The notes under the pieces are model-generated. The model was not told the DNA's origin. It saw nothing but the letters and a program-made list of their open reading frames with translations, and searched no databases. DNA of 64,000 nt from an uncultured bacterium (GTDB lineage: Bacteria; Patescibacteriota; Minisyncoccia; CAIUEV01). Numbering within the stretch: position 1 is the first letter of the stretch; every line of letters begins with the position of its first letter. The stretch spans positions 14,969 through 78,968 of the forward strand of contig CALFZX010000016.1 in assembly GCA_937952315.1 (NCBI GenBank). The letters are read 5' to 3'. The position numbers and the translations under genes are program-made. Shown here one piece after another: positions 254-54,456 of the stretch.

Positions 254-2605
254 ATGCAAAGCTATATTTATGTAGATATAGATGATGAAATTACTACTGT
301 TATCGGCAAACTCAAGGCCAACCAAGAGGGTCGTGAAGTTTTTTTGGTGGTGCCTAAAAGGGCCTTGATCGCTCAAAGTTTGGTTAATCTTCAATTGTTA
401 GATAAGGAAGCAAAAAAAATAGCTAAAAAATTAATTTTTGTTTCACCTGATGCTCACACCAGAAAAACGGCGGAGAAAGCCGGTTTGGAAGTAAAAAAAT
501 ATGTAGCCAAACCAGAAGAACCTCTGAAACAGGAGAATTCTCAACAAGTCGTTGTTCCCAGAAAACTTTCACCGGCCGAAGAGGAAGCTGCCAAGGAAGA
601 ACTTAATTTATTAATGGGTAAAAGCTTGCCAAAGCAGGAAAAAGGTCCAAAGCCGATCCCCGGTTTCAGCTTAAAGCCGACAACTTTTGTTGCCGGGTCT
701 TCTTTTGCTCCGCCTCGGCCGATCATTAACCAGCCGGCAAAGCCATTGGCTTCACCAGTGCTTGCTCCTCCCGCCTTATTAAATAAAAAAATTATTGATC
801 CGCTTATTCAAAATCAATTACAAGTTGAAAATTCCCAGCCAAAGTCGGAGGCTGAAGAAATAAAAAAACCGAAGCATCCGGTAATCGACTTAAGAAAGAA
901 GTCGAAGAATGAAGATCCTAAGCTATCTCTAACTAGTCAAACGACAAAATCCACCGTCGATCAAAAATTGGAGGAAAATCCGTTCAAAGTTCGATCAATC
1001 TTAAGCAAAGAGGAAGGAGCCGTAGCTCCTTTACTTCCTTCTTCGGGAGAGGCGTCTCGGCAACAACAGCCGGCTCAATTCTTAGAAAAAAAACAAAATT
1101 TGTCGAATCCGGTTGTTGATTTTCGCTCTCAAACAAAAGAATTGGCCAATTTGACTCTGAAAGAAAAAGAAAGATTGAGAGATTTGTGGATGGAAAACAA
1201 GGGAGTTGTCAGAGGAAAATTTGTTAAAAAACAGGGAAATATTGATTTAAAAAAGGAAGAGCAGAAAAAAATATCGACTTCCTCATCGTTTGAACAAAAC
1301 GATAGCGTAATCAAAACCACCAGGAGAATAGTCTCCGGAACAGGGAAAATAGTGGATTTAAGAGTGAAAAAAAATAGTTTAACGGGAGATCCGACAGTCG
1401 CCGGTCTAAAAAAAAAAGATCAACGAGAGATTGTTTTACCCGTGATTAATGTTCGTTTTTTTTCTTTTTTCATCTTGATTATTCTGGCAGTCTTGTTGAT
1501 AATTGGGGGGATTGTCCTGCCTAAGGCGGATGTTAGTGTAACTTCTAAAAATTTGGCCTCTGATTTTGAACTGGGCTTTAAAGTCAGCGGAGAAACGGCG
1601 GAAATTAACTTGGCGGAAAAAATTTTGCCGGGTAGTCCGGTTAGATTTAAACTAACTCAGGAGAACATATTTTCCGCTTCCGGAGAAAAAGAGGTAAAAG
1701 AAAAATCCAGGGGTCAAGTTACTTTCTATAATACTGGCGCATCGGCTATTGAAGTTAAGAAAAACACAATTATCACCGGAGATAAAGGCAGAAAATATTT
1801 TACCCTCTCTCCGATTAGCGTACCGGCCGCTTCGACTCCCGTTGCCACGGAAACAGCCGATAATTCTAACGACAATGCCTCTGTTGAATCTCAATCGGGA
1901 GAAGCTTCGGTTGAGATTGTCGCGGGTGATTTCGGTCCGGAATATGATTTAAAAAATGGGTCAACGGTGGAGATAGAAGAAGGCTTCGACAATGTTTCAG
2001 CTAAAATTACCAGGTCGCTGACCGGTGGGAAAGTTGAGAAAGTCAAAGTCGTTACGGAGGAAGACATAAATAAAGCCAAAGAGGAGTTGACGGCAAAAAT
2101 TCGGGAAAAGAGCGCTGAAGAGGCAAAAAAATATTTTGATTTCCAGAAGGGAGAGATCTTGTTTCCCAGCGAATCCGGCTTGGAAGAAATTTCATTTTCT
2201 TCGTCGAAGAACAAAGATGATATAGGCGAAAATTTTTCTGCGAAAATAGAAGGCTCTTTCTTCGCTCTAACTTTTTCCTCTTCAGACGCAGAAAGGATGG
2301 CGGAACAGGAGGTCGCCGGTGAGGATCAAAATAAAAAAGGTGAAATTTCCATCGTTAATTTTAAAGTGGTGAACTTTAATCCTCTGGAAAACCAAATGGA
2401 GATCAGCGGTAATTTTCAGCACAAAGAAAAAGCTGATCCGAAAAGCGAGGAGCTAAGAAGTTATTTGGTGGCGAAAAGTCGTAAGGAGGGTGAAGATTTT
2501 TTGAGTAGAAACAGCGATATTGAAAAATTCGAAATAAGAATATTTCCCGGTTGGCTTCCGTGGTTTCCTTTACTGGAAAAGAATATCGAAATAAAAATTG
2601 ACTAA
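254..2605 (+). CDS. large hypothetical membrane protein (N-terminal ~80-aa globular domain, long low-complexity K/E/P-rich region, one TM helix near aa 400, extracytoplasmic C-terminal domain)
   Basis: 783-aa ORF with a hydrophobic segment FFSFFILIILAVLLIIGGIVLP. No family recognised from sequence alone. Confidence 0.45.
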   Translation: MQSYIYVDIDDEITTVIGKLKANQEGREVFLVVPKRALIAQSLVNLQLLDKEAKKIAKKLIFVSPDAHTRKTAEKAGLEVKKYVAKPEEPLKQENSQQVVVPRKLSPAEEEAAKEELNLLMGKSLPKQEKGPKPIPGFSLKPTTFVAGSSFAPPRPIINQPAKPLASPVLAPPALLNKKIIDPLIQNQLQVENSQPKSEAEEIKKPKHPVIDLRKKSKNEDPKLSLTSQTTKSTVDQKLEENPFKVRSILSKEEGAVAPLLPSSGEASRQQQPAQFLEKKQNLSNPVVDFRSQTKELANLTLKEKERLRDLWMENKGVVRGKFVKKQGNIDLKKEEQKKISTSSSFEQNDSVIKTTRRIVSGTGKIVDLRVKKNSLTGDPTVAGLKKKDQREIVLPVINVRFFSFFILIILAVLLIIGGIVLPKADVSVTSKNLASDFELGFKVSGETAEINLAEKILPGSPVRFKLTQENIFSASGEKEVKEKSRGQVTFYNTGASAIEVKKNTIITGDKGRKYFTLSPISVPAASTPVATETADNSNDNASVESQSGEASVEIVAGDFGPEYDLKNGSTVEIEEGFDNVSAKITRSLTGGKVEKVKVVTEEDINKAKEELTAKIREKSAEEAKKYFDFQKGEILFPSESGLEEISFSSSKNKDDIGENFSAKIEGSFFALTFSSSDAERMAEQEVAGEDQNKKGEISIVNFKVVNFNPLENQMEISGNFQHKEKADPKSEELRSYLVAKSRKEGEDFLSRNSDIEKFEIRIFPGWLPWFPLLEKNIEIKID

Positions 2606-4548
2606 TAGGGATTTTCTCCGTCCTTGATTACTCGGCTCATGAATTCGGTAACCGTCGGATCATCCTCTAAAAAAGTATTTTTCTTAACCGTTTTTGAGGT
2701 AATAGTCTCTTGAGTGAAAGTATCGATCGCTTTAAAATTAGATTCGCTGAACAATTCCATTGTTTTTCCGTAGTCATTTTCTGTCGGCGTAATGGCGATT
2801 TGAAAAACTAAATTGACTTCCGGTGTTTCGCTACCCGCTCCAGCCGGAATACGATCTTTGCTCCAAATAATTTCGCGAGTACCCGGCTTGTAAGTTACGC
2901 CGGTTTTTGTTGGAAAAACGCTATCCGTCCATTCAACCCCGAAAGGTAAAACCGATTTAACCTCGACACCCCTCAAGTCATTGAAAGCGTTGGTGACTCT
3001 CCAGTGAACGGTATAGGTGGTTTTTTTGCCAACGGTTGGCGGAAGCGGACCACTGTTGGGGATAGTTCCGTCGCTATAATAGACTTTAGTTTCAAATCCA
3101 ACGAAAGAACTCAGTTTGAATTCAAGATTTTTTCCAAGGACCACTTTGTTTGTTCCGACGGGCGTAGGCATCTCCGGACTCTCTATACTGACTTGGGTGG
3201 TGCCGGTAAAATTTGTCTTTTGATTGTCGGCGAAGGGAATAAAATCGGCTATTCTAACGGTAAAGGAAAGCCTGCCGGAAGAATTCGGCTTCAATACTGC
3301 GAGTTCGGGAGTTTTTCCACCCTGCCAAATGATTTCTTTGGTATTAGGGTCGAACCAGCCGTCGTTTTCCGGTTTGATGCCTTCTTTATAATCAAAAATA
3401 GCTCCGTTCAGTTTGACTTTTACCATGGCTTGGTTGATCGCCCTTTCAGAAGTATTTTGATATTTAATATCAACGCGAACCTCATCTTTTTTGTGAACAA
3501 TGCTTTGTCCGCTAATTATTTCTTGAGAAATAGTCACCGGCGGTTCAGTGATGCTGGAAACAGCGTCTTTCTTTATATATTCGCTGAACCCCTCATCGTT
3601 TTCTATGCCTACGGTGACATTAATGAATTTCTGATCGCCGGTTTTACCGTTGAGCTTGCCTTCGATAGTTAAAGTTTTTTCTTCGTTGCTGAGCAGGGTG
3701 GGGATTTTCCAATTATTTTTCTTTTCTCCCTCAAGTTCGGGATTACTTGTTATGAAGGAGAACCCCTGCGGATAAGTTATTTTGGCTACCAAGTTTTGAA
3801 AGGGCTCTTTGCCGTTGTTGCGAACACGAACTTGGTAATTAACCGCGTAACCGTCAGCAACAGTTCGCGTCGGCTCGATATTCAGACTGAGAGGGACACC
3901 GATAACTCGAGTGCTGCAAAAACTTTCGTTTTTAAATTCGGAATTAAAATTTTCCGGTGTATAGGAAAGAAAGCTTTTGAACTGAACGGAATCCTCATCT
4001 TTGCGAACAAAACGGCCTTTTATTTCGATTATTCCGTCCTGTTGAGCTTTTAAATCTGACAAGCTCCACTCAGCGATATTTTTATTTGTACTGTTGGCTT
4101 GAGGTTTGGTGCTGGCAAGGGAATAATTTGAAGGAAATTCCAGAGTGATTTTGGCATTTTTTGCATCTAGAGGATTGTTATTGGAATAAAGAAGATTGAT
4201 TACAAAATCCTCATTTATATTAACAGCCGAAGGAGCTTTAAGCTCTATTTTTACTTGCTCTTGCTTAAATTCTTGATAGGTAAAAAAATATACCAAATAA
4301 CCGCTGACGGCAATTAAAAACCCGCCCAGGAGAATCGACCCTATCAACATAAAAAGAGTTTTTTGTTTCTTGGTAGTGTTAGTCTCGATAACCCACTCGG
4401 AATCTTTATTTTTTTCATTGATTTTTTGACTGTCATCTGAGGACGGGGCGAGATTTGATCGAGGGTCGTAAGTGTCCAGCTTGGGCTTCCGACTTTCAAT
4501 ATCGCTTTGCTTTGAGTAAAGTTTTTGTCTTAAATCCTGAAGTTTCAT
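2602..4548 (-). CDS. cell-surface protein with DUF11/CARDB-type repeats (N-in, single TM anchor)
   Basis: 648 aa. TM LFMLIGSILLGGFLIAVSGYLVYFF follows ~65 cytoplasmic residues. Repeated ~100-aa units resemble the 'conserved repeat domain' (e.g. TVADGYAVNYQVRVRNNGKEPFQNLVAKITYPQGFSF). Converges on the upstream gene with a 4-nt overlap. Confidence 0.5.
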   Translation of the reverse strand: MKLQDLRQKLYSKQSDIESRKPKLDTYDPRSNLAPSSDDSQKINEKNKDSEWVIETNTTKKQKTLFMLIGSILLGGFLIAVSGYLVYFFTYQEFKQEQVKIELKAPSAVNINEDFVINLLYSNNNPLDAKNAKITLEFPSNYSLASTKPQANSTNKNIAEWSLSDLKAQQDGIIEIKGRFVRKDEDSVQFKSFLSYTPENFNSEFKNESFCSTRVIGVPLSLNIEPTRTVADGYAVNYQVRVRNNGKEPFQNLVAKITYPQGFSFITSNPELEGEKKNNWKIPTLLSNEEKTLTIEGKLNGKTGDQKFINVTVGIENDEGFSEYIKKDAVSSITEPPVTISQEIISGQSIVHKKDEVRVDIKYQNTSERAINQAMVKVKLNGAIFDYKEGIKPENDGWFDPNTKEIIWQGGKTPELAVLKPNSSGRLSFTVRIADFIPFADNQKTNFTGTTQVSIESPEMPTPVGTNKVVLGKNLEFKLSSFVGFETKVYYSDGTIPNSGPLPPTVGKKTTYTVHWRVTNAFNDLRGVEVKSVLPFGVEWTDSVFPTKTGVTYKPGTREIIWSKDRIPAGAGSETPEVNLVFQIAITPTENDYGKTMELFSESNFKAIDTFTQETITSKTVKKNTFLEDDPTVTEFMSRVIKDGENPY

Positions 4549-8622: not shown

Positions 8623-8916
8623 CTATTTAGCTTTATTGAGGGATTGACCTTCCTTTAAAGTTACAATCGCTTTTTTCTTCTTGCTTCCCTTGAGACCTTC
8701 TCCGCCACGACGAGTAACTTTTTTTGGTTTTACCGCGATAAGATTGACTTTTGCGGGTAAAATGCCATAGATTTCTTTAATGGCTTGCTTCACCATGATT
8801 TTATTCGCATCTTTTTTAACCAAAAAAGTATATTTATTCAATTTCTCATTGCCAATCACCTTTTCAGTCATTAGAGGCTTTAAAATGATATCCTTGAGAG
8901 ATTTATTCTGTTCCAT
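8623..8916 (-). CDS. rplW: 50S ribosomal protein L23
   Basis: uL23-like sequence (ILKPLMTEKV...YTFLVKKDANKIMVKQAIKEIYG). Position fits between rplD and rplB. Confidence 0.9.
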   Translation of the reverse strand: MEQNKSLKDIILKPLMTEKVIGNEKLNKYTFLVKKDANKIMVKQAIKEIYGILPAKVNLIAVKPKKVTRRGGEGLKGSKKKKAIVTLKEGQSLNKAK

Positions 8917-12176: not shown

Positions 12177-14105
12177 ATGAATGAATACTCAAATAATCAA
12201 TTAAAAAAAGGGTCTAAACTAATTGAATTTTGGTCCCGTTTCGTTTTTTTCCTATCGGCATTGATTATCGGCTCGATTATTTTAGGTTACTTAGATATTT
12301 TTTATTGGTTTAGTGAGCTGACGCTGATCTTCGTTTTAGTCTTTTGGACCAAAATTTATCGATATTTGATCGATTTTATCGAAAATTTAGGGCTCTTGCG
12401 ACCGACATTTCTTCAGAGTGTAATATTTCTATTTTTTTTGATCTGGTTTGTTCTCCTTGTAACCCATTCTCCTTTTCCGGCTTTTTCAGGTAGAGATGAA
12501 GGTTCTTACGCCAATGGTGCGATTTACTTGGCGAAAAATGCGAGTTTCTTTTTTGAGCCTCAGTTGCTTCAATATTTTGACAATGAGGGACCGGCTCAAA
12601 AATCTCTTAATTATCCGGGTTTTGTGATCAAAGATCAAAGGCTAATGACTCAGTTTAGTCCGGCTTACTCGACATTGTTGGCGGTATTTCTGCTTTTTTT
12701 TGATACGGTAAAAATTTTTATTTGGATTAACGGAATTTTAATCCTCGGCGGTCTTATTGCTTTTTATATTCTTTTAAAATTTTTTATTCCCAAGTGGTCT
12801 GTTGTTCTAGCGTTGTTGCTTTTGCTTTTTAACTTCGTTTTAATTTGGTTTCCTCGCTTTACTCTCTCCGAAAATCTGGCTTTTTTTGTTAATTTGAATG
12901 TTCTCCTGTTTGCTTTTCTTTCTTTTTTCAACCCACAAAAGAACAATTTGACAACGCTTTTGGCCATTTCCTTGGTTGCGCCTTTAACTAGGCCGGAAGG
13001 GTTCTGGTTTTTGATTGTTGGGCTTGGAATGATCTGCTTGGTTTTGATTAAAAATCGAACGAAGGCGGTCGATTTAATCTCCGGAAAAATAATGATTTCT
13101 GCCATTGTTGGCATTGGAACCGTCGGCTACGCTTTTTTTCTGCAATGGCCGGTCTACCTTCAGCTAGTCAAAGATTTTCTGAAATGGTCCAGCAACCGAG
13201 ACAGTTTTTCTCGCCTCGGCAACTTTGAAAATGGAGGATTTGACTGGATGAATATAGCTTCCGCTCTAGGAAAAATTATTCCCGATCCGGCTAAATTATT
13301 CTATTTTTATACCGTAGAGGCTCGTTACGGAGTGCTAGTTTTTGCGATTGCGCTTTTCGTTTTGGCTATCCATTTTCTTTTTAAACAAAATAGTAATTTT
13401 TACGATGTATCGATAAAATTACTATTTAGACTTTCTTTGTTGCTGGCTTTGCCTTATCTGATGATTTTAATTTCGCCTCAAATTTCTCAAGATCATCCTT
13501 GGTTTTTAAGGCGATTTTTTCCTTTGATTGTTCCTTTCGGTCTTTTAATGACTTTTATTTTTGTCGGCAGATGGATTGATTTGAATTTGTTTAAAAAAAG
13601 ATACGCGATTTTTTTTGGTACTTTTTTTCTCTTGTTTATTGTCACTTTTCCTGCCAGTGCTTATTTTATGGGTTTTAGGATTGATAGCGGTCGGGAGGGA
13701 GCTTTAAAAGAAACGGCTGATTTTTTGAATAGACAGCTTAACCCGTTCATCTTTGTCCAAAGAGAATCTAGCGGAGATGGTTGGCGAATGTTTTCCTTAC
13801 CTCTTAATTCAATTTTTGAATTGGAGGCGGTTTATGTTTATGATCCGGCTCATATTGTCAACTTAAAAAAATTGGTGATGGAAAAATCTGACCGAGGTGA
13901 AAAAACTTTTGTTTTATTGCCGGCCAATGCTTATAATTTTGAGCATAAACTTAAGAAAAACTATAGTCTTATCTTGGAAAAACAAATTGACTATGAGAAC
14001 GATGAATTGGCGGTTGAAGAAAAATCAAGGGAAACTGATTTCCCCCTCTTACAAAAAAAGAAAAATTCTGTTAAAATATATTCACTTAATTTAAATTATG
14101 ATTAA
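12177..14105 (+). CDS. GT-C family glycosyltransferase (ArnT/PMT-like, GT39/83-type) polytopic membrane protein
   Basis: 642 aa with ~12 predicted TM helices. The first extracytoplasmic loop carries the DE-x-x-YA motif (SGRDEGSYANG), compare ArnT QPDETRYAE. Has a C-terminal soluble domain. Confidence 0.55.
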   Translation: MNEYSNNQLKKGSKLIEFWSRFVFFLSALIIGSIILGYLDIFYWFSELTLIFVLVFWTKIYRYLIDFIENLGLLRPTFLQSVIFLFFLIWFVLLVTHSPFPAFSGRDEGSYANGAIYLAKNASFFFEPQLLQYFDNEGPAQKSLNYPGFVIKDQRLMTQFSPAYSTLLAVFLLFFDTVKIFIWINGILILGGLIAFYILLKFFIPKWSVVLALLLLLFNFVLIWFPRFTLSENLAFFVNLNVLLFAFLSFFNPQKNNLTTLLAISLVAPLTRPEGFWFLIVGLGMICLVLIKNRTKAVDLISGKIMISAIVGIGTVGYAFFLQWPVYLQLVKDFLKWSSNRDSFSRLGNFENGGFDWMNIASALGKIIPDPAKLFYFYTVEARYGVLVFAIALFVLAIHFLFKQNSNFYDVSIKLLFRLSLLLALPYLMILISPQISQDHPWFLRRFFPLIVPFGLLMTFIFVGRWIDLNLFKKRYAIFFGTFFLLFIVTFPASAYFMGFRIDSGREGALKETADFLNRQLNPFIFVQRESSGDGWRMFSLPLNSIFELEAVYVYDPAHIVNLKKLVMEKSDRGEKTFVLLPANAYNFEHKLKKNYSLILEKQIDYENDELAVEEKSRETDFPLLQKKKNSVKIYSLNLNYD

Positions 14106-27596: not shown

Positions 27597-29060
27597 ATGT
27601 TTATCCGAGTTAAGATTTGCTCTTTACTAGTAACAATCGGTGTGATTATTTTTTTATGCTCTCCCGCTCACGCTTGGATCGAACCGACGACCGTTCCACC
27701 CGGCAACAATATTTACGCACCTCTTAATACTTCTTCCTTCGGTCAAAGTAAAATCGGCGGATTGATATTAAACATTGGAAACGCCGCACACGGTTTAATC
27801 GTCAGATACGGATTAGTGGGTATTGGTACGGATAATCCGCAGGCAGCCTTGGATGTGGTGGGAAAAGTCAGAAGCACCGGTCTTGAAGTTAACTCAACGA
27901 CGGAAGGAGCCTTATTGCCCCGAATGAATACGAACCAAAGAAATGATATTACCAATAAGGTGGAAGGATTGCTTATTTACAATACGGAAACCAAACAATT
28001 GGAGGTTTACGCTGACGGAGCGTGGAAGGCCAGTAGCGGTGGCGGTGATAGCTTACCGAAAGGTACCATCGCTTTTTTTAATCTTTCCTCTTGTCCTTCC
28101 GGCTGGGCGGAAAAAACAGAACTTAAAGGCAGATATCCCGTCGGCCTGCCCACCGCCGGCACACTCGGTCAGTCGGTCGGTACCGCTTTGACGAACGGAG
28201 AGAATCGCGCAGTGGGCCAACACAGTCATGGAGTGACAGACCCGGGACATAGTCATAATCTGATGGGACAGGATGGAACGTTCGGACCGGGAACCTATGG
28301 GCATTTTATTTGGAATAACGGTCCCTGGTCTTCTGGACGAATTTCAACTTCTACAACCGGAATTTCCATTCAAAATTCTGGTTCTGTCGCGGGCACCAAT
28401 GCCCCCTATCTGCAACTTTTAGCCTGTGAAAAATTAACGACGGCTACCGCTGGCGGTGGCACTTCAACGACGAATGGAGGTTTTTGGCAGAATAATGGAA
28501 CGAGCATCTACTACAATGATGGGAATGTGGGGGTGGGAACCAGCACGCCAACGCAGAAAATGGAAGTGGCGGGGAATGTCAAAGCTTCCGGTGTTTGCAT
28601 CGGCAATGATTGCAAGTCTGCCTGGCCGACAATAACGACCGCTGACACCCTTCAAACCGTGACCGCCCGAGGGAACACTAGTAATGGATCGGTGAATATC
28701 AACGGAGATTTGAGTTTTAACAGTACTCTTTCAACCCCAGGCCGTATGCATATTAACGGTCAAGAAGACTTATACATTTTAAATAAAGGAACTACTCGTG
28801 TTAGTCGTGCCTGGGGCGGAACAGGAAACCTTTCGGTTGAGGGAAGTCTTTGTTTGGGCGGAGATTGTCGTTCTAGCTGGAATATGCCAAAAAGACATTG
28901 TTTTTGGGCCAGCACAAACAGAGCATCCGCCACTGCTAATTTTGCCGTGCAATGTCCCAACAATTACCACTCAACGGGGGTTTCTGAAAGCACGCAATCC
29001 TGTGACCCTTGTACCGGAATCTGTAGTTTCATTGTGTCCGTTCTTTGTTGCAACGATTAA
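27597..29060 (+). CDS. paralog B: secreted protein with shared N-terminal module, phage tail-collar (MdpB-like) domain, Cys-rich C-terminus
   Basis: Signal peptide ...CSPAHA|WIEPTTVPPGNNIYAPLNTSSFGQSKIGGLILNIGNAAHGLIVRYGLVGIGTDNP. The central segment PKGTIAFFNLSSCPSGWAEKTELKGRYPVGLP...QHSHGVTDPGHSHNL matches the tail-collar consensus. Also carries the conserved block DTLQTVTARGNTSNGSVNINGDLSFN...GRMHINGQEDLYILNKGTT. Confidence 0.6.
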   Translation: MFIRVKICSLLVTIGVIIFLCSPAHAWIEPTTVPPGNNIYAPLNTSSFGQSKIGGLILNIGNAAHGLIVRYGLVGIGTDNPQAALDVVGKVRSTGLEVNSTTEGALLPRMNTNQRNDITNKVEGLLIYNTETKQLEVYADGAWKASSGGGDSLPKGTIAFFNLSSCPSGWAEKTELKGRYPVGLPTAGTLGQSVGTALTNGENRAVGQHSHGVTDPGHSHNLMGQDGTFGPGTYGHFIWNNGPWSSGRISTSTTGISIQNSGSVAGTNAPYLQLLACEKLTTATAGGGTSTTNGGFWQNNGTSIYYNDGNVGVGTSTPTQKMEVAGNVKASGVCIGNDCKSAWPTITTADTLQTVTARGNTSNGSVNINGDLSFNSTLSTPGRMHINGQEDLYILNKGTTRVSRAWGGTGNLSVEGSLCLGGDCRSSWNMPKRHCFWASTNRASATANFAVQCPNNYHSTGVSESTQSCDPCTGICSFIVSVLCCND

Positions 29061-38472: not shown

Positions 38473-38593
38473 GTCCTGGCGACGACCTACTCTCACACTC
38501 CATCAAGGGAGCACTACCATCGGCGCTGGAGGGCTTAACGGCTGAGTTCGGTATGGGATCAGGTGGATCCCCTCCGCTTCAATCGCCAAGACT
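38473..38593 (-). rRNA. rrf: 5S ribosomal RNA
   Basis: The minus strand reads GTCTTGGCGATTGAAGCGGAGGGGATCCACCTGATCCCATACCGAACTCAGCCGTTAAGCCCTCCAGCGCCGATGGTAGTGCTCCCTTGATGGAGTGTGAGAGTAGGTCGTCGCCAGGAC. It has the helix I terminal pairing, the CCGAAC loop C motif and the GATGGTAGTG loop D/E region. A 12-nt perfect inverted repeat (CAACTCAAAGTC/GACTTTGAGTTG) flanks it as a processing stem. Confidence 0.85.
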
Positions 38594-38881: not shown

Positions 38882-40385
<1,504 letters not shown>

Positions 40386-40679
40386 AGTATGATTGTTTGT
40401 TCCCTGGTCTCTAGCTTCGGAAGAACAACGTTCATCCTGAGCTAGCCCGCCTACCGGCAGGCAGGGATCAAACTCTCAATAAAAAATATAACAGTATAAA
40501 CACTGTGTGGATTGCAATCCTCGACCGAAGCCAAGAATTGCTAAAAAAAACGATTATCAAGGAAATAAATAGGTAACCGTAAAAAATCAAAAACTTAACC
40601 AGATTTTTAAGGAACTCTGAAATTTTTTCCAGTGCAACACCGAGCTAAGGTATCACACCTTATTCAAATTTGCAAATTA

Positions 40680-45424: not shown

Positions 45425-45940
45425 AGAGCAAAGAGTCTTAGAGAAGAAGCCGGGCAATCGCCCCAGTTTTTAATAACGGGGAGGAAAGTCCGAACACCGT
45501 TAAAAATGATGGATAACAACCATCCGTTCCGTTGCGAGACGGCACGAGGGAAAGCGTCACAGAGACAAAACTAACCCTCTCGAGGGTCTAAGGTGAAAAG
45601 TGAGCGGATACGGGTAAAAAATGGTTGCAATTTTTTTTACTCACCGCTCTCTTCCTCTCGGCAACGATAGGAAGTGACAAGCCCCATTTGGTGCAAGGCC
45701 GTGCCCGGGGGGAGTTGAAAGTAGAAAGTTAAAAGTAGAAAAAAGTCGTTCATCACAGCAATTATTCTAAATAATCGTGAACGAAGCGAACTCCAAAACT
45801 TTAAACTTTTCACTTTGAACTTCCCTCGGGAGTGCCGCAAAGAATTCGGCGGTAACGCTCGAATCAAGATAAATGGTTGCCCCTTGATTTTCAAGGACAG
45901 AATTCGGCTTATAGGCTTCTTCTCTAAGACTCTTTGCTCT
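45425..45940 (+). ncRNA. rnpB: RNase P RNA (bacterial-type M1 RNA)
   Basis: P4 5' strand GGGGAGGAAAGTCCGAACACC at ~45472. P4 3' strand ACAGAATTCGGCTTA at ~45897, whose TTCGGCTT pairs with AAGTCCGAA. J11/12-like AAGGTGAAAAGTGAGCGG and GTGCAAGGCCGTGC (the CR-III GCAAGGCC motif). A perfect 27-bp terminal P1 helix closes the RNA: AGAGCAAAGAGTCTTAGAGAAGAAGCC (45425-45451) pairs with GGCTTCTTCTCTAAGACTCTTTGCTCT (45914-45940). Confidence 0.7.
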
Positions 45941-45956: not shown

Positions 45957-47750
45957 ATGGATAAAAATAACATTCGCAACTTCTGTATTATCGCCCATAT
46001 TGATCACGGCAAATCTACTTTGGCCGATCGGTTTATTGAAATCACGAAAACCGTTTCTTCGCTAAAAATGAAAGATCAATTATTGGATTCAATGGATATT
46101 GAAAGAGAGAGAGGAATCACAATAAAATTACAGCCGGTTAGGATGAAACATCGCTTTAAGGACGAAGACTATGTTCTTAATTTAATTGATACGCCCGGGC
46201 ATGTAGATTTCTCCTATGAGGTTTCTCGCAGTTTGGCGGCTGTTGAGGGCGCGCTTCTTCTGGTTGACGCAACTCAGGGCATTCAGGCACAAACTTTGGC
46301 TAATCTTTATTTGGCGCTGGAGCAGGGCCTAACGATTATTCCGGTGGTCAATAAAATCGATATGCCAAGCGCCAACCCGGAGGAGACAGAGAAGGAAATT
46401 CAACGAATCTTGGGCATGAATGAAAAAGTTCATTTTATTTCCGCTCGGACCGGTCAGGGCGTTCCCGAGTTACTTGACGAAATTGTTCGGCTGGTCAAGC
46501 CTCCGGTAATTGAGAAAAGCGATAATTTTAAGGCGCTGATTTTCGATTCGATTTTTGATTCTTATAAGGGAATAATTCTTTATATTCGAGCTTTTGAGGG
46601 AGAGTTAAAAACTAATCAAGATGTTCGTTTGCTTGGTAGCGACGCTAAAAGTGCAATTCAGGATATCGGTTTTTTTCTGCCGAATAGGGTTTCTACCGGG
46701 GCTATCAAAGCCGGAGAAATCGGCTATTTGGCCACCGGGCTAAAAGACATTCGCCTTTGTCGCGTTGGAGATACGGTTTCTCTGGAAAAATATGCGGAAG
46801 AAGCGGAAGCTTTACCCGGCTATCGTCCCAGCATCCCGATGGTTTACGCGGGAGTCTATCCGACCGATAGCGAAAAATACGAAGAATTAAGAGATGCTTT
46901 GAATCGTTTGAATTTGAATGATGCCGCTTTTTCTTTTGAGCCGGAAACGAGTAACGCTTTGGGAAGAGGTTTCAAAATAGGTTGTTTGGGCCTTCTACAC
47001 TTAGAAATTGTCAAAGAAAGAATCAAAAGAGAATTTTTATTGGATATAATTTTAACAACACCCAGCGTGCGCTATCGAGTGCGAAGAAAAAATTTTGATG
47101 AGTGGGAAGAAATCTCCAGTATCGTCAAAATGCCTGACCAAGCCTTTATTGAGGTGATAGAGGAGCCTTGGGTTTCGACGGAGGTAGTCACACCCAGAAA
47201 CTATTTGGGCCAGATTATTAAATTGATGGAAAATCACCGTGGAGTTTATAAATCAACCGAGTTTTTGCAAGCGGAAAGAGTAATACTTCGTTATGACTTG
47301 CCTTTGGCGGAAGTGATAATGAATTTTTATGACAAGCTTAAATCGGTTAGTGCCGGTTTTGCCTCTTTAAATTATGCTCCGATTGGCTATCGACAGGCGG
47401 ATTTGGTTAAGTTGGAAATTTTAGTAGCCGGTGAGAAAAAAGAATCTCTGAGTCGAGTGGTACCAAAGGATCGCGCTTACAATGAAGGATTAAAGATTTT
47501 GCGAATGCTCAAGAAAACTCTTCCCAAACAACAATTTACGGTTAGTCTGCAGGCGGCGATTGGCGGTAAGATCCTAGCGCGAGAGAATCTTCCGGCGATG
47601 AGAAAAGATGTAACGGCTAAGCTTTACGGAGGAGACAGAACCAGAAAAGATAAATTGCTTAATAAGCAAAAAAAGGGTAAAAAAAGAATGCAGGAGACCG
47701 GTCGAGTAAAAATTCCGGGCGAAGTTTATATGGAATTGCTCAAAAAATAG
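45957..47750 (+). CDS. lepA: elongation factor 4 (LepA)
   Basis: IRNFCIIAHIDHGKSTLADR, DTPGHVDF, NKID and the LepA-specific C-terminal domain. 597 aa. Confidence 0.95.
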   Translation: MDKNNIRNFCIIAHIDHGKSTLADRFIEITKTVSSLKMKDQLLDSMDIERERGITIKLQPVRMKHRFKDEDYVLNLIDTPGHVDFSYEVSRSLAAVEGALLLVDATQGIQAQTLANLYLALEQGLTIIPVVNKIDMPSANPEETEKEIQRILGMNEKVHFISARTGQGVPELLDEIVRLVKPPVIEKSDNFKALIFDSIFDSYKGIILYIRAFEGELKTNQDVRLLGSDAKSAIQDIGFFLPNRVSTGAIKAGEIGYLATGLKDIRLCRVGDTVSLEKYAEEAEALPGYRPSIPMVYAGVYPTDSEKYEELRDALNRLNLNDAAFSFEPETSNALGRGFKIGCLGLLHLEIVKERIKREFLLDIILTTPSVRYRVRRKNFDEWEEISSIVKMPDQAFIEVIEEPWVSTEVVTPRNYLGQIIKLMENHRGVYKSTEFLQAERVILRYDLPLAEVIMNFYDKLKSVSAGFASLNYAPIGYRQADLVKLEILVAGEKKESLSRVVPKDRAYNEGLKILRMLKKTLPKQQFTVSLQAAIGGKILARENLPAMRKDVTAKLYGGDRTRKDKLLNKQKKGKKRMQETGRVKIPGEVYMELLKK

Positions 47751-47798: not shown

Positions 47799-47873
47799 GT
47801 CCCCATAGTTCAACGGATAGAACAAGGGACTCCTAAGCCCTAGATGGAAGTTCGATTCTTCCTGGGGACACCA
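47799..47873 (+). tRNA. tRNA-Arg (CCU), CCA encoded
   Basis: GTCCCCATAGTTCAACGGATAGAACAAGGGACTCCTAAGCCCTAGATGGAAGTTCGATTCTTCCTGGGGACACCA, with anticodon loop CTCCTAA. The anticodon stem sequence is shared with the tRNA-Met at 4726. Confidence 0.75.
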
Positions 47874-48122: not shown

Positions 48123-48506
48123 ATGACTAGAAGAGAAAAAATCTTAGTCTGTGCACTGATTTTGTCGTTGGGGTTATCAATTTATCTTTTGTCCAGGCAA
48201 TCGACTTATGTTACGCCGATTAATTTTTCTAATCCTAGCCGACAATCATTAAAACAATATCGGATAGAATACAATTACCCCAGCGAAATTAGAGTGATAC
48301 TGTTGGGAGTTTTTCCGGACGAAGATTCGATTAAAAGAGTCGGAAGAGAGGCCGCCTTGGAGATAGCCAGAAAGGCATCAAAAGACGGTTATATGCAAGA
48401 ATATGTTTCTTACGAAGTGGCTACGGGAGTTTTTTCTCTTGGTGATGATGGCACCGAGAGAATTTTTCCGGATATTAAGATATATCATATCAGAAAAAAA
48501 AACTAA
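48123..48506 (+). CDS. small membrane-anchored protein, module copy 1 (paralog of 49691..50107)
   Basis: N-terminal signal-anchor ILVCALILSLGLSIYLL. C-terminal ~70-aa domain (AALEIARKASKDGYMQEYVSYEVATGVFSLGDDGTERIFPDIKIYHIRK) aligns with AAKEIAQKAGSQGYVQDGPVTYQMGDGIYVIHPDGSERLMNAVKIYRVK of the second copy. Confidence 0.45.
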   Translation: MTRREKILVCALILSLGLSIYLLSRQSTYVTPINFSNPSRQSLKQYRIEYNYPSEIRVILLGVFPDEDSIKRVGREAALEIARKASKDGYMQEYVSYEVATGVFSLGDDGTERIFPDIKIYHIRKKN

Positions 48507-48577
48507 TTTGTTATGCTAAACAAAAAAGCCGAGGATTTATGTCCCCGGCTTTTTAAAATGTTTTTCAGAGTGTTTAA

Positions 48578-49552
48578 TTATTCCCATCCTGAATCCCAAC
48601 CTCCTCCGTCCCAACCGGAATCCCAACCTGAATCCCAACCACCGTCATCCCATCCTGAATCCCAACCGCCATCATCCCATCCTGAATCCCAACCGCCGTC
48701 CCAACCGGAATCCCAAGAATCCCAGCCGCCATCCCATCCACTGTCATCCCAACCACTGTCCCAACCGGAATCCCAGCCGCTATCCCAACCGCCGTCCCAA
48801 CCGGAATCCCAAGAACCCCAGTCGGTGTCCCAACTGTCATTTGGCCAGCCGCTGTCCCAACCGTTATCACTCCAGCCACTGTCCCAACCGTTATCACTCC
48901 AGCCACTGTCCCAACCGTCTCCGCTCCAACCTGAGTTCCAGTTAGATCCAGAACCCGAATAGCCACTTCCACTTGTTCCGCCGGAGCTTTTTCCGCCTCC
49001 GCCGCTACTACCGCCGGAAGATCCTTTAGATCCGGAAGCGTAGTTGTAAGGTTTAGATGAAGAGGAAGAAGCCTTCTTTATATCATTGTAACTGTTATAT
49101 TTATTATACTTATTATATTTATTATACTTAGTGTAAGTATTATATTTTTTAGCACTGTTTTGCTTGTAAGTTTTTTTATTTGTCTTACAGCTTTCCGTTT
49201 GACAACCGCCGGAATAACCACTCACTAAATCTTTGATGTTGTTGACTAAGTCAACATTGATATCATTTGTGTTAGTGGGATAATTATTGTTAGTCGCCGT
49301 GGCTGTGTTGTTGATAGTGATCGGCGCTCCAGTGACGGTTGTAGTGGTAGTGACCGGAGCCGGAGCAGGTGCTGGTGCCGGAGCAGGGGCGGGGGCTGGT
49401 GCCGGAGCAGGGGCCGGTTGAGCCGGTAAGGTTAAATTGATTAAAAGGTCATCATGCTTACTGGGACTTTTAGCTAGAGCATTGGTTGCCGGAGCAATAG
49501 AAGTTCCCGCTAAAACCAAACTTAGAGGCACGGAAATTAAATACTTTTTCAT
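48578..49552 (-). CDS. secreted repeat protein, module copy 1: signal peptide, (PA)n linker, N/T-rich region, KYN repeats, G/S tract, long [GWDSGWD]-type Asp/Gly/Trp tandem-repeat C-terminus
   Basis: MKKYLISVPLSLVLAGTSIAPATNALA|KSPSKHDDLLINLTLPAQPAPAPAPAPAPAPAPAPAPV...INNTATATNNNYPTNTND...KYNTYTKYNKYNKYNKYNSYN...GGSSGGGGKSSGG...GWDSGWSDNGWDSGW...GGGWDSGWE. The nucleotide tandem repeats are visible at 48590-48960. Confidence 0.55.
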   Translation of the reverse strand: MKKYLISVPLSLVLAGTSIAPATNALAKSPSKHDDLLINLTLPAQPAPAPAPAPAPAPAPAPAPAPVTTTTTVTGAPITINNTATATNNNYPTNTNDINVDLVNNIKDLVSGYSGGCQTESCKTNKKTYKQNSAKKYNTYTKYNKYNKYNKYNSYNDIKKASSSSSKPYNYASGSKGSSGGSSGGGGKSSGGTSGSGYSGSGSNWNSGWSGDGWDSGWSDNGWDSGWSDNGWDSGWPNDSWDTDWGSWDSGWDGGWDSGWDSGWDSGWDDSGWDGGWDSWDSGWDGGWDSGWDDGGWDSGWDDGGWDSGWDSGWDGGGWDSGWE

Positions 49553-49690
49553 GTTAGGTCTAATTACTTTTTTAATTCTTTATAATTGTACAAAAAAAAA
49601 TAATCGTCAAATTTTTTGACGATTTTAAACAATTAGTATAAAAGGAGTTAAAAGCTCTTTGAAATTTGATTACAAAAAAGGAGAGGAAAG

Positions 49691-50107
49691 ATGAAAAAAA
49701 TATTTTTTTTCGGAGTAGCGTTAGTTTTCTCTATGACGATCTTTGCGGTTTTGGCTTTCTCGGCCGGAACTTATCGGGTCGATTACGGAGCGACGGAAAT
49801 TAAGGTTACCATGTCCGGTGACTTTACTCTCGACGAGTTAAAGGCCGCCGCTCGAGCTGCTGCCAAGGAGATTGCGCAAAAGGCCGGTTCTCAGGGATAT
49901 GTCCAGGATGGTCCTGTGACATATCAGATGGGAGACGGTATATATGTAATACACCCAGATGGATCGGAGAGGCTTATGAACGCGGTAAAAATTTATCGCG
50001 TGAAACAGAGGCCTAAACCTCAACCGCCTCGACAACCACCCGGCCCCACTAATCGTCCACCTTCCGGTGACCGACCACCGTCAAGTGGCCAATCGGCCGC
50101 TTGGTAA
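49691..50107 (+). CDS. small membrane-anchored protein, module copy 2, with Pro-rich C-terminal tail
   Basis: Signal peptide/anchor MKKIFFFGVALVFSMTIFAVLAFSAG, a domain homologous to 48123..48506, and a tail QRPKPQPPRQPPGPTNRPPSGDRPPSSG. Confidence 0.45.
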   Translation: MKKIFFFGVALVFSMTIFAVLAFSAGTYRVDYGATEIKVTMSGDFTLDELKAAARAAAKEIAQKAGSQGYVQDGPVTYQMGDGIYVIHPDGSERLMNAVKIYRVKQRPKPQPPRQPPGPTNRPPSGDRPPSSGQSAAW

Positions 50108-50146
50108 CTTCCTTTTATTTTTATTGTATTGTACCTTATTTTCAAC

Positions 50147-50182
50147 CCGAAGACTTAATTGTCCTCGGGTTTTTTCTTTTTA
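50147..50182 (+). terminator. rho-independent terminator after 49691..50107
   Basis: AACCCGAAGAC-TTAATT-GTCCTCGGGTTTTTTCTTTTT. Confidence 0.5.
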
Positions 50183-50185
50183 AAT

Positions 50186-50218
50186 AAAAAAACCGAGGAA
50201 AGAATCCCCGGTCTTTTT
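50186..50218 (-). terminator. rho-independent terminator after 50239..50967 (minus strand)
   Basis: The plus strand reads AAAAAACCGAGGAAAGAATCCCCGGTCTTTTTT. The hairpin ACCGAGG/CCCCGGT has A- and T-runs on both sides. Confidence 0.45.
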
Positions 50219-50238
50219 TCCTGCCGTAAAAAAACAAT

Positions 50239-50967
50239 CTAGATGCTGTAGGTTGACTGTTCGGTCGTTGTAGAGCTTCCATTCCCGTTGTCTCCACTGC
50301 CACTGTTCCATTCATTAGATTGCATATAATTGAAAGCATCGTCCCATCCGGTGTCCCAACCGTTGCTCCAACCATCATCCCAAGCGCTATTCCATTCGCT
50401 TTCCCAGTCTATATTTTCGTAATTTGTGTTATTCCCGTTACTGCCATTCCATTCATTTTCCCAATTATAATTGGCATAATCGGTATAGGTTGAACCGTCT
50501 TGATACGGACCCCAAACCCATTCATAATTACTGAAGTCATTGTTAAAATAATATTTCTTGGGGGTGGCAACGGGACCGTTGGTTTTTCTCTGGTTGCTAC
50601 TTTGGCCATAGTCAGTCCAAGAGGTCTTATAGGGATAAGCTTTACTTTTTGCCTCTTTACATTTTTCAGCGGACATTTCTTTCACTAAATCCTTAATACT
50701 GTTAATCAGATCCAAATCAATGTTGTTCGTGTTGACCGGGTAATTATTGTTTGTCGCGGTGGCCGTGTTGTTGATTATAATCGGTGTCGGCTCGGCTACC
50801 GGAGCCGGAGCCGGTGCCGGGGCTGGGGCTGGTTGAGCCGGTAAAGCTACATTAATAACCAAGTCATCGTGTTTACTCGGACTTTTTGCCAAAGCGAGAC
50901 TACCTTCCAGCCAGAGACCTCCCGCTAAGACGGTCGCTAAAATTGTTGATAGCAAATACTTTTTCAT
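50239..50967 (-). CDS. secreted repeat protein, module copy 2 (paralog of 48578..49552) with W/N/D/G-rich C-terminus
   Basis: MKKYLLSTILATVLAGGLWLEGSLALA|KSPSKHDDLVINVALPAQPAPAPAPAPAPV...INNTATATNNNYPVNTNNIDLDLINSIKDLV... then W-rich repeats (NEWNSAWDDGWSNGWDTGWDD). The first ~110 aa are ~80% identical to copy 1. Confidence 0.55.
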   Translation of the reverse strand: MKKYLLSTILATVLAGGLWLEGSLALAKSPSKHDDLVINVALPAQPAPAPAPAPAPVAEPTPIIINNTATATNNNYPVNTNNIDLDLINSIKDLVKEMSAEKCKEAKSKAYPYKTSWTDYGQSSNQRKTNGPVATPKKYYFNNDFSNYEWVWGPYQDGSTYTDYANYNWENEWNGSNGNNTNYENIDWESEWNSAWDDGWSNGWDTGWDDAFNYMQSNEWNSGSGDNGNGSSTTTEQSTYSI

Positions 50968-51115
50968 AAATAATAATTTAAATTTTAACCCCAGATGTTT
51001 GTTGAAATAAAAAAAATTGTCAATAGTTTTTAGTTAAATACTAAAAAATCACTCCTAGAAAGGGTTTTAGACATTAAAAAACCGCACGATTTTATTTCGT
51101 ACGGTTTTTTTTAAT

Positions 51116-51691
51116 TTATTCTCTCCATAAGTCGGAGCCGAGAAAAATTCTTTGGTTGTTCAAATCTTCAATTCGTTTATCCTCTCTTAGAATATAAAGC
51201 TTACCTAACTGGAAAATTTTTTCCTCTTTTTGATAAACGATTTCGATTAAGGCAATCTCTCCTTCGCCAAAGTAAGGTGGCCTGGAGGCGGTTTTTGATT
51301 GATCAAAATTTAAGTAACTCTTTTCGTCGTCAAAAACTTTAATGACTAGTCCGTCAAAACTTCTGAAAGAGCCAAAATTTTTTGAATCAACGAAAGAAGT
51401 TATACCCCTGACCAAAACCGGTTTTGCTAAATTCTTTGAGATGAACTGCCAAGAGTTCTGGTTTTTGATACCGGAAATGCGCTGGCCGAACCAAACTTGA
51501 CCCAGAGTGTCATATCCCTTTATCTCCAAAAAATTATCCGATTCAATAAGGATCTCCTTCTTTGCCACTTCATTTGCTTCCTTGGCGTGCAAATTGCCTT
51601 GCGAAAATATCATTCCAAGAGCAGAAGCAAGGACCAATAGAAAGAATACTTCCCAAGCGTTCCTCGTCAGAATTCTGACTAGAAAGTTCAT
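51116..51691 (-). CDS. hypothetical protein with N-terminal TM anchor
   Basis: 191-aa ORF with an N-terminal hydrophobic segment (VFFLLVLASALGMIF). No family recognised. Confidence 0.35.
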   Translation of the reverse strand: MNFLVRILTRNAWEVFFLLVLASALGMIFSQGNLHAKEANEVAKKEILIESDNFLEIKGYDTLGQVWFGQRISGIKNQNSWQFISKNLAKPVLVRGITSFVDSKNFGSFRSFDGLVIKVFDDEKSYLNFDQSKTASRPPYFGEGEIALIEIVYQKEEKIFQLGKLYILREDKRIEDLNNQRIFLGSDLWRE

Positions 51692-52659: not shown

Positions 52660-54456
52660 TTATTTCTCGGGTACAAAATAAACAAGGATGGAGTACCCAA
52701 TCTGATCAACCGGCTTATAGTAATCGGTTAACCAATGGTAGTTTCCCTTTTCTTCCGGATTTAAAGTGTTCCATTGGATAGCGCTGGCCGAAATGGCAAA
52801 CCAGCCGGTAGAGGGCTTTCTGTCAAAACCCCAGTATTCATAACGGTTGGGCAAATAATAATCTAAATCTCCGCCACCGAAATAGTCAATTTTAATATGA
52901 TTAATCTTCTTTTTATCCATAAATTGTTTTAAGCGAATCAAATCTTGGCCCCAATCGACATTCGAATCAACCATGTATTTCCATCCTTCCTTCGGCCCGC
53001 CCTTAATTTCGTTAAAATAGGGCAAATAGCTGGGGAAAACTGTTAAGTTACTCCCTAAATACCAAAGCATCAAAATCAGAAAAGCTCCGATGTTTGTCCA
53101 ATAAAACCCGATTCTCTTTTCTCTGTCCAACGATTTTTCAAACTGCCAGAGCATAATGGCGGTGAACATATAAATAAAGGGAAATACCGGCAGAATATAA
53201 CGAATACCGAGTTGAAGCTTGTTGGTTGAAGCTAGAATAAAAACAAAGCTGGCAAAAACAAAATATCCGATTATAACTGCATTTTCTCTCATCCAAAGCA
53301 GAAAAATTTTTGTTTTGTCTTGGTTTTTGCGATGAAAAAAATGATAAGCGCCAAAACCGAAGATCATAATGGCAAAATAGAAAAGAATCTGAGCGGCAAT
53401 CGGCTCTTTAAGCCAGTAAGCGAAAACGAAATAGTCGGGCCAATGAGTGCCGACTTCTCCAAAAAAGTAAGTGGTGTGGCCACCGGTAGTGTGAGAAGAA
53501 ACCATCAGGAAACCGAGTAAATATTGAGCATAAGGTCGAAGAAAAGAAATATCGGTCATCCAGTGAAGTTTGGTATTAAAGCCCAGTCCGGCCAAATCAG
53601 AATCTTTTATCGAAACATCAATCAATTCGTGTTGTGCTTCTACCGGCATATTCCAAATAAAGACCTGATACCAAAAACCCACTAATAAATAGCCGATAAC
53701 CATAATGGTGCAGACTTTTGCCAGTTCCTTTCCGATTTCTTGGAGCGTGTTAATTATTTTACCTTTGCGATAAGCCCCCAAACCGTAAATAAAGGCGATG
53801 AAAAGAAAAGTCGGAATAAGCAAAAAGACGGAAAATTTGGCGAGCTGAGCCAGACCGAAAACTACGCCCGCCCACAGAAGATTTTTCCAAGTGGGATTTT
53901 CCAAGTATAAATAATAGGCGTAGAGAGCAAAAATGGCAAAGGCGGTGATGCCCATATCGGTTGTAATGAAGCGACCGTGAGCCATTAAATTGGGGGAAAA
54001 GAGAAAGAGAGCCAAAGCGATTAAAGCCGCCTCTCGTCGTTTAGTAATTTTTTCGGTGAAACGATAGAGAAAGAAACCGCCCAGTAAAAAGATTAAAATC
54101 ATTGGTAACCTTCCCCAGAAGAGCATTCCGTCGGCATCGTTTCCGTATTTATAAAGAAATTTATTGCCTAAATCCCACTGATCGTTAATCGGTTTTTGCC
54201 AAGAGGGATCGTATTCCGGAAAGTAAATATCCATAAAAAGCAATGGCAATGCGGCTAGTTGCTTGATTAGGGGAGGATGCTCGGGATTTATCCGATAATC
54301 TTGTTTCGTCCAATAGGAATAGCCGGCCACAATGTGGGGCATTTCATCACGAATTGAAGAATCGTTCCAGACGCTTCCAACGGCCAGAAAACCGGCTCCG
54401 AGCATCATCACAAACGCCAGATAATGTGTCTTTAGTAAATTTTTCCAAAATCGCAT
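52660..54456 (-). CDS. GT-C family glycosyltransferase (ArnT/PMT-like, GT39/83-type), second copy in window
   Basis: 598 aa with ~12 TM helices. First-loop motif NDSSIRDEMPH (DE motif), and GRLPMILIFLLGGFFLYRFTEKITKRREAALIALALFLFSP typical of the ArnT/PMT_2 core. Confidence 0.6.
   Translation of the reverse strand: MRFWKNLLKTHYLAFVMMLGAGFLAVGSVWNDSSIRDEMPHIVAGYSYWTKQDYRINPEHPPLIKQLAALPLLFMDIYFPEYDPSWQKPINDQWDLGNKFLYKYGNDADGMLFWGRLPMILIFLLGGFFLYRFTEKITKRREAALIALALFLFSPNLMAHGRFITTDMGITAFAIFALYAYYLYLENPTWKNLLWAGVVFGLAQLAKFSVFLLIPTFLFIAFIYGLGAYRKGKIINTLQEIGKELAKVCTIMVIGYLLVGFWYQVFIWNMPVEAQHELIDVSIKDSDLAGLGFNTKLHWMTDISFLRPYAQYLLGFLMVSSHTTGGHTTYFFGEVGTHWPDYFVFAYWLKEPIAAQILFYFAIMIFGFGAYHFFHRKNQDKTKIFLLWMRENAVIIGYFVFASFVFILASTNKLQLGIRYILPVFPFIYMFTAIMLWQFEKSLDREKRIGFYWTNIGAFLILMLWYLGSNLTVFPSYLPYFNEIKGGPKEGWKYMVDSNVDWGQDLIRLKQFMDKKKINHIKIDYFGGGDLDYYLPNRYEYWGFDRKPSTGWFAISASAIQWNTLNPEEKGNYHWLTDYYKPVDQIGYSILVYFVPEK

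Follow-up and report, generated by a model that had tools for sequence, protein, structure and literature searches.

Among the described bacterial systems that come closest to the locus considered here are the sortase- or lipid-anchored surface proteins of monoderms, which carry a signal peptide, a Pro-rich spacer and repeats that vary between lineages, and the streptococcal proteins whose disordered Ser/Thr-rich regions outside the cytoplasm carry glycans that shield them from proteolysis (PMC12041528). Here we describe two gene pairs found in a stretch of 64,000 nucleotides (nt) from an uncultured bacterium (contig CALFZX010000016.1, positions 14,969 to 78,968; the window in what follows), each consisting of a gene for a small exported protein (smallA, smallB) and a convergent gene for a secreted repeat protein (secA, secB). 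The small and sec proteins are orphan families which match no described family, and the pair is a new sequence type within a known broad kind, that of repeat-bearing disordered surface proteins. Our tentative proposal, to which we give clearly less than an even chance, is that the sec proteins are disordered surface or matrix proteins docked by a conserved N-terminal module (N-module) on the small partner and displaying an acidic array of Trp stickers.

The four open reading frames (ORFs) lie within positions 48123-50967 in the order smallA, secA, smallB and secB, at the coordinates which an earlier note on this DNA had claimed for them. Their parts are the following:

48123-48506, + strand: smallA, 127 amino acids (aa); signal anchor (MTRREK and a hydrophobic stretch), linker of about 20 aa, alpha/beta domain of about 85 aa, short basic end RKKN.
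48578-49552, - strand: secA, 324 aa.
49472-49552, - strand: signal peptide of secA, aa 1-27.
49217-49471, - strand: conserved N-module of secA, aa 28-112, including the Pro-Ala (PA) run.
49355-49426, - strand: PA run of secA, aa 43-66, within the N-module.
49073-49192, - strand: basic K/Y/N block of secA, aa 121-160, net charge +11.
48947-49072, - strand: Gly/Ser tract of secA, aa 161-202.
48581-48946, - strand: tail of secA, aa 203-324, an acidic repeat of Trp, Asp, Gly and Ser; 29 Trp at intervals of 3-5 residues, net charge about -31.
49691-50107, + strand: smallB, 138 aa; signal peptide or anchor with an AFS/A-type site, alpha/beta domain of about 85 aa, basic Pro-rich tail ending in AAW.
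50239-50967, - strand: secB, 242 aa; signal peptide, N-module with (PA)5, acidic region rich in W/N/D/Y/E, conserved end SSTTTEQSTYSI.

Both sec proteins begin with a Sec-type signal peptide, as the earlier note held, followed by common blocks in the form of KSPSKHDDL(L/V)IN, a PA run, INNTATATNNNYP.NTN and IKDLV. These motif blocks are identical in secA and secB, while the N-module as a whole shows 70% identity over 97 aligned residues, so that the N-termini are conserved but not near-identical as first described; PA runs are present in both, but as (PA)10 in secA and (PA)5 in secB instead of the (PA)6-10 reported at first. Tracts of Thr and Ser (TTTTT, TATAT, SSSSSS, SSTTT) adjoin the PA runs. 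The tail of secA, which had been read as more than 20 heptads, is instead made of 29 Trp-centred units of 3-5 residues (DSGW, DGGW, SDNGW) with a base period of 12 nt at the DNA level. The C-termini read ...GGGWDSGWE in secA and ...SSTTTEQSTYSI in secB, whose orthologues are proteins P0013-P0018. No LPXTG motif, lipobox or transmembrane segment by which the proteins could anchor themselves is visible in secA or secB, and Cys is absent from both of their signal peptides; only a distant sec homologue, at the locus labelled L009, has a VAGC sequence. Sortase-anchored LPXTG proteins were rejected as a family for the sec proteins, since their C-termini lack the motif.

The small proteins are paralogous (39% identity over 83 aa, E-value 2e-13), although less alike than the ~45% claimed for their domains in the earlier note, which was right in treating the two modules as true paralogues. 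SmallA, whose orthologues are P0006-P0012, has a signal anchor that follows the positive-inside rule, and its domain is therefore extracytoplasmic. In smallB and its orthologues, a short hydrophobic region is followed by AxA-like sites (AFS/A, ALA/G and ASA/G, read by eye from the sequence), and the C-terminal tail is basic, Pro-rich and ends in Trp. Basic Pro-rich tails are also found in P0022 and P0025, two distant members of the family. The domain of smallB alone was modelled with AlphaFold2 (pLDDT 78, pTM 0.64) as one helix packed on an antiparallel sheet.

Profile searches of both proteins and a structure search of the small domain gave no significant match, in agreement with the earlier note, which had recognised neither family. 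Scans of the four proteins, of the neighbouring protein p191 and of the distant homologues against Pfam, NCBIfam, PHROGs and PADLOC returned nothing significant. SmallA and smallB have no Pfam match at E≤1 and no NCBIfam match, and neither family profile found anything below an E-value of 0.5 among the sequences of the PDB. With Foldseek, no match to the small domain fell below an E-value of 0.01, and TM-scores were almost all <0.5. The PepSY- or BLIP-like fold suggested for the small protein therefore received no support: PepSY (PF03413) is absent from the top 50 Foldseek PDB matches, the best of which have E-values of 0.02-0.04, and the domain showed no structural similarity to BLIP or BLIP-II. 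A cadherin-like repeat domain was also rejected for it, as were the giant cadherin/RTX proteins from the exhaustive profile search, whose scores are sums of 5-19 weak local stretches; against one of these giants the hhalign probability is 7%, with a match limited to the VSY..F.V.PDG hairpin motif. A GW module or SH3b domain does not fit the sec proteins, which have no such Pfam match and Trp units of only 3-5 residues. A phage or anti-phage defence family was likewise discarded: PHROGs gave low-complexity matches only (E>0.003), PADLOC gave none, and neither family was present in the viral contigs searched. The literature on these motifs and on comparable proteins yielded nothing relevant. The Trp-periodic acidic tail is of a sequence type for which Pfam, NCBIfam and the PDB contain no representative.

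A tail with a net charge of about -31 and regularly spaced Asp could also be a cation-binding element, which would buffer or nucleate Ca2+, other metals or mineral surfaces at the cell surface; the homologues at loci L009 and L012, which have a Cys-rich middle region, would be in keeping with this. However, there is no match to RTX nonapeptides (PF00353) or any other Ca-binding repeat family in secA or secB, the spacing of DSGW, DGGW and SDNGW does not fit GGxGxDxUx, and the most strictly periodic residue is Trp, which cation binding does not explain. We consider this explanation very unlikely.

The array encoding the tail was examined with Tandem Repeats Finder, which returned arrays at 48582-48919 with a base period of 12 nt and higher orders of 27, 39 and 66 nt, as well as a period 6/24 array over the PA run. 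The obvious tandem repeats in the DNA are thus real but imperfect, with 65-88% matches and a longest exact repeat of 40 nt at 48852/48879. Their codons are scrambled: both TCN and AGY stand for Ser, three different codons for Gly and two for Asp, and within the PA run there are four codons for Pro and three for Ala. As the Trp spacing stays regular in spite of this synonymous scrambling, the peptide pattern itself is under selection. Across three species (that of the window and two relatives), secA has 324, 285 and 279 aa with 29, 23 and 22 Trp, respectively. The corresponding ORFs of 975, 858 and 840 nt differ by multiples of 3 and keep their frame from the signal peptide to the stop codon (the 288 aa given for a near relative instead of 279 aa reflects the gene call alone). 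The gene is identical base for base in the independent assemblies L001, L002 and L003, which belong to one of the relatives, and likewise in L004, L005 and L007 from the other. Since orthologous arrays were assembled identically three times in each of two species, the array is not an assembly artefact, which the earlier note had named as a risk. A second assembly from the strain of the window itself (L011) is identical over 2375 nt; it begins at window position 48733, inside the array, so that the exact copy number in the window rests on one assembly. The number of repeats differs between species, as the idea of length-variable, slippage-prone repeats would have it, but the scrambled codons and the identity of secA within each of two species do not agree with slippage. 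A phase-variable gene controlled by slippage was rejected on these grounds (arrays of 65-88% matches with scrambled codons, identical in three assemblies of each of the two species). The repeats do not look like slippage-driven contingency loci, but rather like units gained and lost over long times.

Selection was also assessed on the N-modules. Among the 68 identical amino acids of secA and secB, 35 are encoded by the same codon, and four-fold degenerate sites match at 12 of 30 positions, which is near saturation. Amino-acid identity of 70% together with these 12/30 matches indicates purifying selection and not gene conversion; recent conversion as the cause of the similar N-termini is excluded by the four-fold-site counts. 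The A orthologues form one group and the B orthologues another, which dates the duplication to before the three species diverged. The two pairs are old, diverged paralogues with different tails.

The layout LepA-smallA-secA-smallB-secB-p191-holB-PMT recurs in two further species, represented by L001-3 and by L004/5/7, whose LepA is 92-96% identical to that of the window and in which four-fold degenerate sites match at ~38-55%. Going by the record names of their samples, the relatives probably come from lake and sewage studies, and one related scaffold reaches 902 kb. A word-indexed search of 5.8 billion protein clusters returned 12 small-family proteins; when 1.84 billion representatives were searched exhaustively with HMMER, only two further members were convincing, the distant P0022 and P0025, the former being a true homologue of the family (hhalign probability 97.8%). 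As the word-indexed search missed the secA orthologues, the count for the sec family is a lower bound, and a scan of metagenomes added at least one further locus. No further copies of the module were found in the window beyond the A and B pairs.

At L009, P0022 is followed by a convergent sec gene of 405 aa with a signal peptide, KKKSPSKHDDVALNISLP, a PA-rich spacer, ITNTATATNDNFPVNTNDINLELL, a Cys-rich middle region, a Gly/Ser tract and (GSEWDAGYG)n. It thus shares the signal peptide, KSPSKHDD, NTATATN and a repeat tail with the sec proteins of the window. At L010, P0025 is followed by a convergent gene ending in ...GYDGGEWDTGYDGGEW, a sec C-terminus. Every small-family gene for which downstream DNA is available has as its convergent neighbour either a sec gene or the Trp-repeat C-terminus of one, and this pairing persists across different flanks (LepA/holB in one group, L31 in the other). 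The recurrence in L009 and L010 indicates that the pairing is conserved and not due to chance; the co-occurrence on which the earlier note had made its reading depend is therefore found, with both pairs in three species and one pair each at L009 and L010.

The sec family extends somewhat further. At L006, the gene of the sec homologue P0019 (8001-8979, + strand) has an in-frame TAA at 8760-8762 which splits the N-terminal part from the GWD repeats; past it, the frame stays open for ~72 codons of WDTGGWDEGWDDSS repeats, and only beyond these does a hairpin terminator follow. A nonsense mutation, a sequencing error or else programmed read-through could explain the interruption. A contig labelled Ca. 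Saccharibacteria (L008) ends after the sec N-terminus. L012 carries two tandem, co-directional sec genes (2-220 and 418-1581, both + strand), which both end in (DFGG)n after GWD repeats, indicating that sec duplication recurs in another lineage. In L006 and L012, the convergent partner position is taken by a different N-anchored protein with a Pro-rich tail; the one of 179 aa in L006 was rejected as a small-family member, as no homology was detectable. The pairs of L006 and L009 adjoin an L31 gene, and between that gene and the pair, both loci (L006 9829-10134, - strand; L009 473-784, + strand) encode homologous (E-value 3e-5) small secreted proteins whose mature part is basic and rich in W/Y/H/R. 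They may be a third component, of a charge complementary to that of the acidic Trp tails. The sec proteins are confined to a few lineages known from metagenomes alone, which are probably Patescibacteria/CPR-like, and a lifestyle of this kind is plausible for the bacterium of the window.

The intergenic regions were considered with regard to the way in which the four genes are transcribed. The relevant features are:

48522-48554, in the gap where smallA and secA converge: hairpin with an A-run on one side and a T-run on the other, folding z-score -4.0 (+ strand) and -5.9 (- strand).
50144-50171 (for the + strand) and 50186-50216 (for the - strand): two hairpin terminators between smallB and secB, folding z-score -5.4 on the - strand.
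51078-51110, - strand: hairpin terminator after p191, folding z-score -7.5.
49553-49690, between the divergent secA and smallB: control region of 138 bp, 84% mean identity across three species.

The hairpin at 48522-48554 looks like a bidirectional intrinsic terminator, and its CCGAGGA...TCCCCGG stem is found again in the hairpin at 50186-50216. The terminator after p191 indicates that secB is a separate transcription unit and, together with the A-/U-run-flanked hairpins in the convergent gaps, suggests that the four genes are monocistronic, as they appear to be. The 84% identity of the control region lies far above the ~38-55% at four-fold degenerate sites in the neighbouring genes, taken as the neutral level. 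It contains a palindrome, AATCGTCAAA-N3-TTTGACGATT, at 49602-49624, with perfect 10-bp arms and two opposed TTGAC(G/A) hexamers; it is unique in the window and its core is kept in the two other species. A promoter-like site lies on the - strand at 49610-49582. The palindrome is unlikely to be a terminator, as it sits between divergent gene starts, and its layout would fit back-to-back -35 boxes or an operator. Either function would imply coordinated control of secA and smallB. The term module, as used in the earlier note, is accordingly misplaced in the sense of an operon: small and sec partners are convergent and have their own terminators, while the common divergent promoter region belongs to secA and smallB.

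That each gene has its own promoter and terminator, and that very few genomes carry either family, would also agree with a simpler explanation, in which adjacency is inherited synteny without functional coupling and two unrelated exported orphans were duplicated together. The convergent arrangement, however, survives different flanks (LepA/holB as against L31) and a fall in identity to ~25-30%, and we give this explanation little chance.

In the mechanism that we tentatively prefer, the sec proteins would be exported via Sec, remain largely disordered and be placed in the envelope or the extracellular matrix. After cleavage of the signal peptide, the conserved N-module, which would comprise KSPSKHDD with a short strand, the Pro-Ala spacer, a strand formed by INNTATATNNNYP and an IDLDLxNSIKDLV helix, would hold the protein at the cell by docking on the alpha/beta domain which the neighbouring small protein exposes outside the cytoplasm. 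Such docking is proposed because the sec proteins lack an anchor of their own. The PA and Gly/Ser tracts would serve as extended spacers, and the work would fall to the acidic C-terminal array, in which a Trp recurs every 4-5 residues between Asp, Gly and Ser; it would form a multivalent sticker surface for a polyvalent partner, bound through aromatic and electrostatic interactions. Such a partner might be a cationic or sugar polymer, either of another cell or of the bacterium's own wall, a nearby basic Pro-rich/aromatic protein, or divalent cations. The export signals, the domain layout, the pattern of conservation, the gene pairing, the age of the duplication and the structure of the transcription units are observed; the physical docking of sec on small, the role of the spacers and a function in adhesion or matrix formation are what we infer from them. 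The charge pattern speaks for the proposal, since in secA a Gly/Ser spacer separates a block of +11 from a tail of about -31, while the tails of the small family are basic and Pro-rich. So do the recurrent pairing, the arrangement kept at L006 and L012, the selection on both the N-module and the tail, and the topology of smallA.

Several observations weigh against this mechanism. The N-module is 70% identical between the paralogues and the small domain only 39%, which is unlike a co-evolving interface. Small-family homologues are absent from the sequenced DNA at L006 and L012. The partners are convergent and separately terminated, which leaves no coupling at the level of an operon, and coupling, if there is any, joins secA to smallB via their common promoter region. 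The model of the small domain is of moderate confidence only (pLDDT 78) and has no informative structural neighbour. Finally, judging by its AxA-like sites, smallB may be cleaved and released instead of anchored; the N-terminal anchoring which the earlier note attributed to both small proteins thus applies to smallA, a signal-anchor protein, but possibly not to smallB.

A cleaved smallB would be easier to reconcile with a different division of labour, in which the small protein is a handler (an extracytoplasmic chaperone, nucleator or inhibitor) and sec is the self-assembling subunit of a fibre, gel or coacervate matrix. The cleavable-looking signal peptides of smallB and its orthologues count in favour of it, as do the conserved pairing, the basic W/Y/H/R-rich small secreted protein added beside the pair in L006 and L009, and the combination of the invariant Asn/Thr-rich strand INNTATATNNN with the block-polyampholyte layout of secA, which favours self-association. 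The accessory proteins that control functional amyloids offer an analogy for this role. There is no similarity to the curli, TasA, Fap or chaplin families, and curli (Curlin_rpt), TasA and other functional-amyloid subunits were rejected for lack of any Pfam or NCBIfam match; smallA is clearly membrane-anchored, and self-assembly of sec is predicted only. We regard this explanation as unlikely.

The genes that flank the locus bear on a further explanation. On the side of smallA these are LepA (45957-47750) and tRNA-Arg(CCU) (47799-47873); on the side of secB they are p191 (51116-51691, - strand), holB and a PMT/PMT_2 glycosyltransferase (52660-54456, - strand). P191 is an N-anchored orphan of 191 aa without a family match, and stands beside secB in all three species. 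The glycosyltransferase is a GT-C enzyme of 598 aa, encoded three genes from secB with synteny kept in each of the three species; its substrate could be the Thr/Ser tracts of secA and secB. The actinobacterial enzyme Pmt O-mannosylates Sec-exported proteins rich in Ala, Pro and Thr. The sec proteins could accordingly form a glycoprotein coat, with the TTTTT, TATAT, SSSSSS and SSTTT tracts O-glycosylated by the PMT-type enzyme and the small proteins acting as stabilisers or being unrelated neighbours. Both the proximity of the gene, maintained in three of three species, and the position of the tracts beside the PA runs agree with this. Against it, the DNA around the pairs of L006 and L009, which lie beside L31, shows no PMT gene, genomes of this kind often carry PMT_2/ArnT-like genes, no enzyme making the donor was identified, and both the Trp/Asp tail and the pairing are left unexplained. 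We consider this explanation decidedly unlikely, and it is compatible with docking on the small partner instead of being exclusive of it.

Elsewhere in the window, a 16S rRNA gene (38884-40386, - strand) is followed after ~293 bp by a full-length 5S gene (38474-38590, - strand), with no 23S gene between them or anywhere else in the window, which reflects either an unusual gene arrangement or an assembly mis-join. The 16S gene differs from TM7 primers at 3-4 positions and carries the EUB338-III-type target. The class A RNase P RNA (45442-45927, + strand) measures 486 nt against a model of 367 positions, probably owing to insertions. The window has many large ORFs without a Pfam domain, among them three without one at E≤1e-5 (254-2605, 783 aa; 12177-14105, 642 aa; 27597-29060, 487 aa; all + strand), the first of which adjoins an ORF with a DUF11 domain (2602-4548, - strand).

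Little is understood of the ways in which ultra-small uncultured bacteria form their surface and attach to partners, and most candidates are unannotated genes such as those of the sec and small families. The locus described here is a compact, conserved and testable pair, which combines a folded ectodomain in one partner with a strongly selected N-module and an unusual acidic Trp-periodic tail in the other. Should the two proteins bind, this would be a new way to tether disordered surface proteins; should they not, they would be two rare orphan families of limited reach. A more far-reaching version of the docking proposal, which we regard as a remote prospect, is a two-component surface glue of ultra-small, probably episymbiotic bacteria, in which a small membrane-proximal docking protein and a disordered, charge-patterned Trp-sticker protein, perhaps glycosylated on its Thr/Ser tracts by the PMT-type enzyme, would serve cell-cell attachment. 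The sticker array would then bind polymers of the host-cell surface or condense with nearby basic aromatic/Pro-rich proteins.

The comparison with known systems shows both likeness and difference in each case. With the streptococcal GtrB/PgtC2 system (PMC12041528) and the actinobacterial Pmt substrates, the sec proteins have in common Sec export, low-complexity tracts of Ser/Thr and Pro/Ala and a nearby GT-C (PMT_2) gene; here, however, disorder makes up most of the protein, the acidic Trp-repeat end has no counterpart and glycosylation is only predicted. They resemble the sortase- or lipid-anchored proteins of monoderms in the architecture mentioned at the outset, but have no LPXTG motif or lipobox; the candidate for anchoring is N-terminal and the proposed anchor is a separate small membrane protein. 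The curli (CsgA/CsgB/CsgC) and TasA/TapA systems also have a secreted subunit rich in Asn, Thr and Gln beside a small exported accessory protein, but there is no sequence or profile similarity, no gene for a dedicated secretion pore was seen, and the assembly of sec is known only as a proposal. The GW modules of Listeria and Staphylococcus, which bind the cell wall and lipoteichoic acid, share the name, the Gly-Trp dipeptide and the surface location; they are folded SH3-like domains of ~80 aa, in contrast to the sec units of 3-5 residues, which have no Pfam match. Finally, the GW/WG Ago-hook and other Trp-sticker disordered regions of eukaryotes likewise place Gly-Trp within disorder rich in Asp, Ser, Gly and Asn and make multivalent use of Trp. 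Those regions are cytoplasmic or nuclear, whereas the sec proteins are bacterial and exported, and the likeness is one of composition only.

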